This document shows, piece after piece, positions 34,819 through 37,236 of a stretch of 64,000 bases of DNA. Origin of the DNA: Escherichia coli (lineage in GTDB: Bacteria > Pseudomonadota > Gammaproteobacteria > Enterobacterales > Enterobacteriaceae); the NCBI RefSeq assembly GCF_003334405.1, contig NZ_QOWM01000003.1; one strand, given 5' to 3'. Under the pieces are notes generated by a model that saw only the letters and a program-made list of their open reading frames with translations, was not told where the DNA came from and ran no database searches. A program made the position numbers and the translations under genes. Numbering within the stretch: the stretch's first letter is position 1; each line of letters opens with the position of its first letter.

Positions 34819-35109
34819 TTATTTTCTGTTGCTATTCCATTCCTCCCAGGTCGTGATGGTGATTTCAGGATCTTTGCCGGTTGCACTTTGGGTAAGCCCC
34901 GAAACCAGTTCTCTAATTTCTTCTTCACTTTGGGTACTGATAAGTCCAAAAGTGTTAGTTCCCAGCTCATGGATATTTCCCTCATCATCCGTCATAGTGA
35001 GCAAAAAACCGTCGCGAGTCAGGTAATTATTCAACTCGTTAATTTCAGTCAATGTATCCTCATGCAACATGACGGTTATGACATAACGGACAAGATCGCC
35101 ACTGGCCAT
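34819..35109 (-). CDS. ydiZ: uncharacterised protein, 96 aa
   Basis: ORF 96 aa recognised as YdiZ. Confidence 0.75.
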   Translation of the reverse strand: MASGDLVRYVITVMLHEDTLTEINELNNYLTRDGFLLTMTDDEGNIHELGTNTFGLISTQSEEEIRELVSGLTQSATGKDPEITITTWEEWNSNRK

Positions 35110-36139: not shown

Positions 36140-36425
36140 CATTTCCTCCTATAGGCTGATTTCAGTCTGGCACCGAATCAGCGGAAAGTGAAGAAATTAA
36201 CAATATGATTTATTGGAGCTTTATTTAAAATTTTGCAGATAAATATATATAAATAAAAATCTGTTTTCGCCACATGCTTATTCAAAAAATGAAATAAGAA
36301 TACATTGCTAAGTTATTCGCGCCTTTTTATAATTCGTTACCTTTCCAGGGACGCTAATCTTTGATCCTTAAGAAAGTTTCCGGGACCGCGATGGTCTCTT
36401 TTTTTGTTGTACGGACTCTTGATAA

Positions 36426-37184
36426 ATGAAGCTTTTGAAGACAGTTCCTGCCATCGTTATGTTGGCGGGGGGCATGTTTGCGTCACTGAATGCAGCTGCC
36501 GATGATTCCGTTTTTACTGTCATGGATGATCCTGCCAGCGCTAAAAAACCTTTCGAAGGTAATCTGAACGCAGGATATCTTGCACAATCAGGCAATACGA
36601 AAAGCTCCTCACTTACGGCTGACACCACCATGACCTGGTATGGACACACCACTGCCTGGTCGCTGTGGGGGAACGCCAGTAATACTTCTTCTAATGATGA
36701 GCGTTCTTCAGAAAAATATGCGGCGGGCGGGCGTAGCCGTTTTAATTTAACTGATTATGACTATTTATTTGGTCAGGCAAGCTGGCTGACAGACCGTTAT
36801 AACGGCTATCGAGAGCGCGATGTGTTGACCGCGGGTTATGGGCGTCAGTTTTTGAATGGCCCGGTACACAGTTTCCGCTTTGAATTCGGTCCAGGTGTGC
36901 GTTACGACAAATATACCGACAATGCCAGTGAAACCCAGCCGCTGGGCTATGCCTCCGGGGCTTATGCATGGCAGTTGACTGACAACGCTAAATTTACGCA
37001 GGGTGTTTCGGTCTTTGGCGCGGAAGACACAACGCTGAACTCCGAAAGCGCATTAAATGTTGCTATTAATGAACATTTTGGACTGAAGGTGGCTTACAAC
37101 GTCACATGGAACTCTGAACCTCCAGAGTCTGCACCGGAACATACCGACCGTCGGACAACCTTATCGCTGGGCTACAGCATGTAA
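36426..37184 (+). CDS. ydiY: putative outer membrane beta-barrel protein
   Basis: 252 aa with signal peptide and C-terminal aromatic residue pattern (LGYSM). Confidence 0.85.
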   Translation: MKLLKTVPAIVMLAGGMFASLNAAADDSVFTVMDDPASAKKPFEGNLNAGYLAQSGNTKSSSLTADTTMTWYGHTTAWSLWGNASNTSSNDERSSEKYAAGGRSRFNLTDYDYLFGQASWLTDRYNGYRERDVLTAGYGRQFLNGPVHSFRFEFGPGVRYDKYTDNASETQPLGYASGAYAWQLTDNAKFTQGVSVFGAEDTTLNSESALNVAINEHFGLKVAYNVTWNSEPPESAPEHTDRRTTLSLGYSM

Positions 37185-37236
37185 AATTATCTGCCGGACC
37201 GTGTTATGCGGTCTGGCTGTCTTCGTTTGTCACTGC

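Follow-up and report, generated by a model that had tools for sequence, protein, structure and literature searches.

The hairpin located shortly upstream of ydiY in Escherichia coli K-12 was found to belong to a genuine, conserved and so far unannotated element, probably an attenuator, in the leader of this gene. We propose, with a probability of roughly 0.6, that the stem-loop (SL2) and the seven uridines that follow it (U7) form a weak, leaky Rho-independent terminator within the 87-nt ydiY leader, and that read-through is tuned by a trans-acting factor. The observations made directly are a promoter-proximal transcription start site (TSS), an RNA 3′ end within the U-tract, transcripts that read through to full length and the strong conservation of the module.

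The window, which is the whole 64,000-nt stretch of DNA that was analysed, is E. coli K-12 DNA. It is 100% identical to strain RV308 and has the reverse orientation relative to MG1655; published MG1655 coordinates were mapped onto it by anchoring on the ydiY ATG (1806083 = 36426). The genes pfkB (35210-36139/36142, minus strand) and ydiY (36426-37184, plus strand) are divergent, and the 283-bp spacer between them is empty in the RefSeq annotation. According to the open reading frame (ORF) list and RefSeq, the ydiY coding sequence downstream of the attenuator encodes a DUF481 outer-membrane protein. Beyond the two divergent genes, RefSeq (PGAP) names ydiZ of K-12 (34819-35109, minus strand) as 'ghoS, type V toxin-antitoxin system endoribonuclease antitoxin', and no ghoT-like partner is annotated beside it in the window. 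The large ORF at 37516-38931 (minus strand) and beyond is annotated by RefSeq as a frameshifted espL1 (arpB) type III effector pseudogene.

SL2 (GGGACC-gcgau-GGUCUC) occupies positions 36382-36398 on the plus strand and was identified from the sequence, folding, a consensus scan and pairing across species. The initial annotation had described GGACC-gcgat-GGTCT followed by T7 about 20 nt before the ydiY ATG, and both its sequence and its coordinates were exact: GGACC lies at 36383-36387, the gcgat loop at 36388-36392 and GGTCT at 36393-36397, followed by a C at 36398. The stem consists of 6 bp (36382-36387 with 36393-36398), including four G-C pairs and one G.U pair, and closes a loop of 5 nt. 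The U7 tract extends over 36399-36405 (plus strand) and was delineated by a published RNA 3′ end and by the T content across loci; a G follows at 36406, and the ATG at 36426 is 20 nt past the last T. The order of elements in the leader is read as ...GAAAG UUUCC GGGACC gcgau GGUCUC UUUUUUU G UUGUACGGACUC UUGAUAA AUG. The same annotation had called the hairpin weak. The folding energy of the 6-bp stem-loop (-8.7 kcal/mol; z = -1.44) was matched by 17 of 200 shuffles and is not significant by itself. The minus-strand version of SL2 folds worse, at -4.8 kcal/mol.

Runs of seven T occur in the window at the rate expected by chance (29 observed vs 27 expected). The composite motif, a stem of at least 6 bp with at least four G-C pairs that is directly followed by at least six T, was observed four times vs 0.22 expected in shuffles (64 kb, both strands = 128 kb), and the consensus scan called SL2 with T7 terminator-like. 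The other three sites of the composite motif within the 64 kb, at 43333-43348 (plus strand), 47274-47288 (plus strand) and 4457-4436 (minus strand), are presumably ordinary terminators. That SL2 with U7 is no chance match follows from its conservation and from the published transcript-end data.

A near-consensus sigma70-type promoter was identified upstream of the leader (36305-36333, plus strand), with a -35 hexamer TTGCTA (36305-36310) and a -10 hexamer TATAAT (36328-36333) that are separated by a 17-bp spacer and score 10/12 in the consensus scan. Both hexamers were invariant among 60 distinct orthologous sequences, and transcription starts 6 nt beyond the -10 hexamer. SMRT-Cappable-seq (Yan et al., 2018; PMC6131387) places the TSS of ydiY (b1722) at 1806170 and 1806167 on the MG1655 reverse strand, which correspond to an A at position 36339 (+1, plus strand) and to a minor start at 36342. 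Given the TSS at 36339, SL2 spans +44 to +60 of the 87-nt ydiY 5′ UTR. The capped full-length transcript in this dataset spans 1805286-1806170 and ends at approximately window position 37223 (PMC6131387), while a search of the Cappable-seq 2016 supplements for ydiY gave no entry. A pfkB-b1724-b1725 transcript, flagged as 'novel' in the SMRT-Cappable-seq data (PMC6131387), starts at MG1655 1806351(+), which is window position 36158 on the minus strand. This start precedes the annotated pfkB start by 19 nt, and 181 bp separate it from the divergent ydiY TSS. An AT-rich block (36180-36300) sits between the two promoters. As the pfkB operon TSS points away from ydiY at a distance of 181 bp, SL2 lies outside the pfkB transcript.

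Within the U-tract, Term-seq (Adams et al., 2021; PMC7815308) lists an RNA 3′ end at MG1655 1806107(-), which corresponds to position 36402, the fourth U (+64). This end was classed as 'orphan' and 'upstream ORF', 24 nt before ydiY, and the flank printed with it is the SL2 sequence (PMC7815308). It occurs once per supplementary file and was called in one of the three Term-seq conditions, which we read as M63 glucose from its place on the third tab in the stated file order and from its neighbours, the thiC, thiM, hisG, entD and cirA leaders. The read count of 31,086 compares with 35,983 for the trpE attenuator on the same tab, whose end is listed at -25, and is near the detection floor, given the lowest minus-strand counts of ~24-25 thousand on that tab (PMC7815308). 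The Rho and intrinsic-terminator scores of the study cover the LB 0.4 tab only, from which the ydiY leader end is absent (PMC7815308), and an RNAtag-seq-based 3′-end catalogue (TRS) lists for ydiY the primary terminator only, with no leader end. The leader 3′ end is real enough for curation, yet weak. Since full-length capped transcripts also exist, the leader terminator must be leaky.

These start and end positions bear on what had been suggested from the sequence. The initial annotation had regarded a lack of 3′ ends at 36400-36410 and a ydiY start downstream of the hairpin as adverse to its reading; an end was recorded at 36402, in a single condition of one dataset and close to the detection limit (PMC7815308), and both starts, 36339 and the minor 36342, are upstream of the hairpin. 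The position of the 3′ end between the TSS and the ATG at 36426 supports the leader attenuator that had been suggested. A short unannotated transcript from the spacer had been offered as another option, and this held in part: a short RNA does end at the hairpin, but it starts at the ydiY promoter and not at a separate promoter in the spacer. The short transcript and the attenuator are one and the same thing.

A protein-guided scan of Enterobacteriaceae genomes yielded 80 ydiY loci, 78 of which were usable, and the same promoter and leader were found upstream of ydiY in 72 of the 78. Regional identities were calculated between the E. coli reference and 17 other genera. The third codon positions of ydiY showed 53% identity to E. 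coli and the spacer upstream of the -35 hexamer 62%, compared with 89% for the promoter, 78% for the leader from +1 to +64 (~84% without the variable core of the first stem-loop, SL1) and 91% for the 23 nt from the terminator to the ATG. Over about 75 Enterobacteriaceae species, conservation of the promoter, SL1, SL2, the U-run and the 13 nt that follow (78-91%) greatly exceeds that of synonymous sites (53%). The block after the terminator, GUUGUACGGACUC (36406-36418, plus strand), consists mostly of invariant or at least 90% conserved columns in a MAFFT alignment (A1). It carries the only Shine-Dalgarno-like element of the leader, a GGA that stands 10-14 nt from the ydiY ATG. The single-stranded linker UUUCC (36377-36381, plus strand) is likewise conserved; in an anchor-based alignment (A2), neither C 36380 nor C 36381 varies, and two of the three U positions reach a conservation of at least 90%.

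Of 5426 complete E. coli genomes, 5421 carry the leader in a single copy, and a covariance model built for it gave one match per locus, always upstream of ydiY, with a single match in the window (36339-36407). A repeated or mobile element was rejected on the basis of this one copy per E. coli genome and one match per locus. A search with the Rfam 15 covariance models, which include riboswitches and known leaders, gave no match over 36339-36425 even at an E-value limit of 10.

Several loci depart from the common arrangement. In K. pneumoniae (1346-1414 of the locus), ~68 extra nt separate the leader from the ATG. Three Raoultella-type loci are without the promoter and the 5′ arm of SL1 and keep GAUCC...GAAAG and the hairpin, and the loci of C. 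amalonaticus S646, Phytobacter massiliensis and one metagenome-assembled genome carry a ydiY homologue whose upstream region is unrelated. At the other border of the leader, the first 20 nt of the ydiY ORF (ATGAAGCTTTTGAAGACAGT, 36426-36445, plus strand) showed 97% identity to E. coli across the 17 genera, synonymous positions included, and the identity of the following 20 nt fell to 58%. Given this drop, the conserved regulatory module may reach into the coding region.

Independent minimum free energy (MFE) folds of the predicted short RNA recovered the same architecture in ~42 of 49 species: SL1, with GGA-N/N-UCC as its inner helix, is joined by a linker of 5 nt to the terminator hairpin, which the U-tract follows. 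The noted hairpin is thus present as described, but it is merely the 3′ half of a larger conserved leader with two hairpins. SL1 (36341-36376, plus strand; +3 to +38) is supported by these folds and by pairing and covariation, and is built of an outer CUUUC/GAAAG helix, an internal loop, an inner AGGGA/UCCUU helix and an apical loop. Alignment A1 mis-registered SL1, and RNAalifold run on it detected the terminator hairpin only; A2 and a model-based alignment that leans towards structure (A3) were used instead. In A2, 84% of the cells held standard pairs vs 35-56% when the partners were slid, and six pairs changed on both sides vs 3.4 in shuffles, a number reached by 4 of 500 shuffles. In A3, 86.5% of the cells were paired, and the covariation score and both-side changes lay above 500 of 500 shuffles. 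Taken together, the two alignments gave 84-86.5% paired cells vs 32-62% after sliding, with both-side changes and a covariation score above 484-500 of 500 shuffles. The covariation was located mostly in SL1, as in UCAGGAU/AUCCUGA, CUACGAA/UUCGUAG and GCGG/CCGC; SL1 cells were paired at 77-80%, and 5 of its 13 pairs changed on both sides.

SL2 showed a different pattern, with 99% of its cells paired and three of its six pairs never varying. One compensatory double change from G-C to A-U was observed (Pseudescherichia), and one pair alternates between G.U (43), A-U (15) and G-C (1). The switch between G.U and A-U pairs in the plus-strand RNA, breaks the DNA palindrome and produces a C/A mismatch in the minus-strand RNA, which favours a function as RNA on the ydiY strand. 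No conserved antiterminator was detected in the folds of the 49 species, where SL1 and SL2 formed independent hairpins, or in an RNAalifold check for competitors. A possible 1:3 pairing was read from the sequences in Citrobacter only. Two antiterminator candidates, the direct repeat UUUCCAGGGAC / UUUCCGGGACC of E. coli and a copy of GGUCU within SL1 of Citrobacter, were rejected as lineage-specific.

The leader hairpin is both weak and frozen. A 6-bp, occasionally 7-bp, SL2 stem of -6 to -9.4 kcal/mol was present in 75 of 76 loci, and the 8 nt after the stem contained at least seven T in 59 of the 76 and six in 11 more, giving at least six in 70 (~92%). In the K. oxytoca group (three loci), the U-tract is lost (CUUAUAGG) while the hairpin and the downstream block GUUGUACGGAC are kept, and the hairpin must therefore do something beyond termination. 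The primary 3′ terminator of ydiY behaves otherwise. In the window its hairpin is located at 37193-37217 (plus strand), with full-length 3′ ends at ~37223-37225, as supported by the consensus scan, the SMRT-Cappable-seq end at 1805286 and the TRS end at 1805284/5, the latter with a hairpin of -18.8 kcal/mol. Across the same genomes, the 3′ terminators of ydiY have unrelated sequences and are much stronger, with stems of 8-11 bp. That the leader hairpin is frozen and weak, while an ordinary terminator may drift, argues for an additional, sequence-specific constraint on the former. The similarity between the two in Escherichia, which share GGACCG...GGUCU in this genus only, was dismissed as a coincidence, as the 3′ terminators of other genera are unrelated. 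The primary terminator, GCCGGACCG...CGGUCUGGC (37193-37225, plus strand), lies between the convergent ydiY and yniD and has an A/T-rich 5′ flank, and it may serve both directions.

In the mechanism that we propose, RNA polymerase would start at 36339 from the near-consensus promoter and transcribe SL1, the UUUCC linker, the 6-bp hairpin and U7. A fraction of the polymerases would release at +62 to +68, giving a ~64-nt RNA with two hairpins that ends in the U-tract, and the remaining polymerases would continue across the final 20-odd bases into ydiY, as far as the strong 3′ terminator. The features expected of an intrinsic terminator are present in the form of a G+C-rich stem followed by a U-tract, and of an in vivo 3′ end within this tract in one condition and near the detection floor. 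The terminator is situated between the TSS and the ATG, and terminated and read-through transcripts have both been recorded, as in an attenuator; a mutually exclusive antiterminator, or another defined switch, was not found. We infer that the leader 3′ end is made by termination and not by trimming, and the terminated fraction would then set or limit the output of ydiY. More than 70 species keep the hairpin at only about -7 to -9 kcal/mol, and its sequence is as frozen as that of the linker and of the 13 nt beyond the U-tract; together, these observations point to a trans-acting factor, either a protein or a small RNA. Such a factor would recognise or melt the hairpin, and an RNA-only switch or a leader peptide would be disfavoured.

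Four other explanations were weighed, which in decreasing order of weight are a post-transcriptional element, a trans-acting small RNA, a leader peptide and a DNA operator. The first is unlikely. Term-seq cannot separate termination from exonuclease trimming back to a hairpin. In a post-transcriptional element, SL2 and the U-tract would act in the full-length ydiY mRNA, the hairpin as a stability or protein-binding structure and the U-tract as a landing site for ribosomal protein S1, Hfq or members of the CspA family near a weak ribosome-binding site, and the 3′ end would be a decay product trimmed to the hairpin. The K. oxytoca group, which keeps the hairpin and GUUGUACGGAC but no U-tract, is consistent with this explanation, as are the 3′ end placed just 4 nt past the stem in one dataset and the frozen sequence of the stem, which suggests specific recognition. 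With a sole Shine-Dalgarno-like GGA, located 10-14 nt before the ATG, translation may depend on a U-rich enhancer, and cold-shock proteins bind heptathymidine with nanomolar affinity (PMC1636342). However, U7 abuts a G-C-closed stem in ~92% of the loci, the composite motif is statistically terminator-like, and the 3′ end falls inside the U-tract like those of bona fide attenuators in the same Term-seq table; a post-transcriptional element and termination are, moreover, not mutually exclusive. The ~64-nt RNA could instead be a functional 5′-UTR-derived small RNA acting in trans, with a seed in the UUGAUCC of SL1 or in CU-rich segments and with the attenuation of ydiY as a secondary matter. This appears quite improbable. 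Its layout (5′ stem-loop, linker, terminator hairpin and U-tail) and its strong, invariant promoter would fit, but the mapped 3′ end leaves only four U, which is poor for Hfq, the abundance is low, no target has been identified, and the supplements of one RIL-seq-based study of small RNA prediction hold no ydiY entry. UUGAUCC is more conserved than its pairing partner, yet it is mostly paired within SL1, and conservation past the terminator equals that within the RNA, which points to a role in cis.

Ribosome-mediated attenuation by a leader peptide has very little probability. It would involve a 22-codon ORF that starts at TTG 36361 (or at the ATG in the loop, 36391) and ends at TGA 36427-36429, and its translation would control the hairpin or be coupled to that of ydiY. 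In E. coli and many other genera, the frame is indeed open and its stop overlaps the ydiY ATG as ATGA, but this persistence is explained by the nucleotide conservation of the leader. In E. albertii, Pseudenterobacter, Enterobacter L030, Yokenella, Silvania and Siccibacter, one-base indels in the loop or the T-run garble the peptide or move its stop codon, and no ORF starts in the leader in the K. oxytoca group (K. grimontii, K. michiganensis and K. oxytoca) or in K. spallanzanii. The loop ATG is not conserved and no consistent Shine-Dalgarno sequence was found. A leader peptide or upstream ORF was therefore rejected on account of the tolerated indels, the losses in Klebsiella and the missing Shine-Dalgarno sequence. 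An equally slender chance was given to the inverted repeat being a DNA operator, to which a transcription factor would bind downstream of the start of ydiY. A perfect 6-5-6 palindrome, GAGACC-N5-GGTCTC, occupies +44 to +60 in Citrobacter and Enterobacter, and GAAAGTTTC just upstream is also palindromic. The repeat is imperfect as DNA in 43 of the 60 distinct sequences (GGGACC vs GGTCTC), however, in a manner that the G.U pair permits in RNA; the double change from G-C to A-U in one lineage keeps the pairing and alters both half-sites, and an operator would leave the U-tract and the mapped RNA 3′ end unaccounted for.

To our knowledge, no post-initiation control of the outer-membrane protein gene ydiY has been described, and we know of no regulator of it. 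SraG was rejected as one, as a published test showed no effect on ydiY. The gene has been described as acid-inducible, and it belongs to an uncharacterised iModulon that is linked to ppGpp and translation and is responsive to altered pH. Acid pH and the ppGpp or translation status are therefore named here as candidate inputs to the leader, as leads only. A bolder proposal, which we consider rather unlikely, is that the leader represents a sequence-specific regulatory RNA family of the Enterobacteriaceae. The hairpin, UUUCC and GUUGUACGGAC would then bind a dedicated protein or small RNA, or fold in response to a ligand or to pH, and so switch both termination and translation of an acid-inducible outer-membrane protein, and the ~64-nt RNA might also act in trans.

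As for the weak leaky terminator, its stem, U-tract and invariant block provide a mutable handle for finding how ydiY is regulated. The map of E. coli K-12 gains an unannotated cis-regulatory RNA and possibly a 5′-UTR-derived small RNA too. The presence of a frozen, weak terminator in the leader and of a freely drifting one at the 3′ end suggests a specific partner still to be found. The results further illustrate that 'orphan' Term-seq 3′ ends can be upgraded to conserved elements through comparative analysis alone.

The ydiY leader resembles the premature intrinsic terminators in E. coli 5′ UTRs that were obtained by Term-seq (PMC7815308), in that a hairpin and U-tract follow the TSS and precede the start codon, with the 3′ end inside the tract. 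The ydiY end is itself in the tables of that study (PMC7815308), but it was not singled out there, was seen in one condition and has no regulator or phenotype attached. As with trpL, pheL, hisL and pyrL, the distance from the terminator to the first structural gene is a few tens of bases, and terminated RNAs occur alongside read-through ones; unlike these leaders, that of ydiY is without a conserved translated peptide and a 2:3 antiterminator, and its stem is much weaker. The short RNA is also comparable to ChiZ and IspZ, which appear as overexpression plasmids in the strain table of PMC7815308, being short and structured, with its end at a leader terminator and a promoter in common with the gene downstream. 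Unlike small RNAs of the ChiZ and IspZ type, the short ydiY RNA has a short U-tail at its mapped end and is without an entry in the supplements of the one RIL-seq-based study. SroA and SroG are riboswitch-derived 5′-UTR small RNAs of the same kind as ChiZ and IspZ.

Two further systems concern possible inputs. In the pH-responsive leader of alx (PRE), pause-directed refolding reportedly affects translation at alkaline pH. The ydiY leader is likewise a structured 5′ leader of a pH-responsive envelope gene, but it has no sequence or Rfam similarity to PRE. What we take to be the cold box of cspA, UGACGUACAGAC, matches the invariant block GUUGUACGGACUC (36406-36418, with GUUGUACGGAC) at 8 of 11 positions; a match of this quality somewhere in a 90-nt leader has a chance expectation of ~10% and serves as a lead only. 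We know of no link between ydiY and cold shock. Proteins of the CspA family antiterminate at weak Rho-independent terminators (Bae et al., 2000; Phadtare et al., 2002, both as cited in PMC1636342). A weak hairpin beside U7, as found in the ydiY leader, is the kind of substrate that is melted or bound in CspA-family antitermination.
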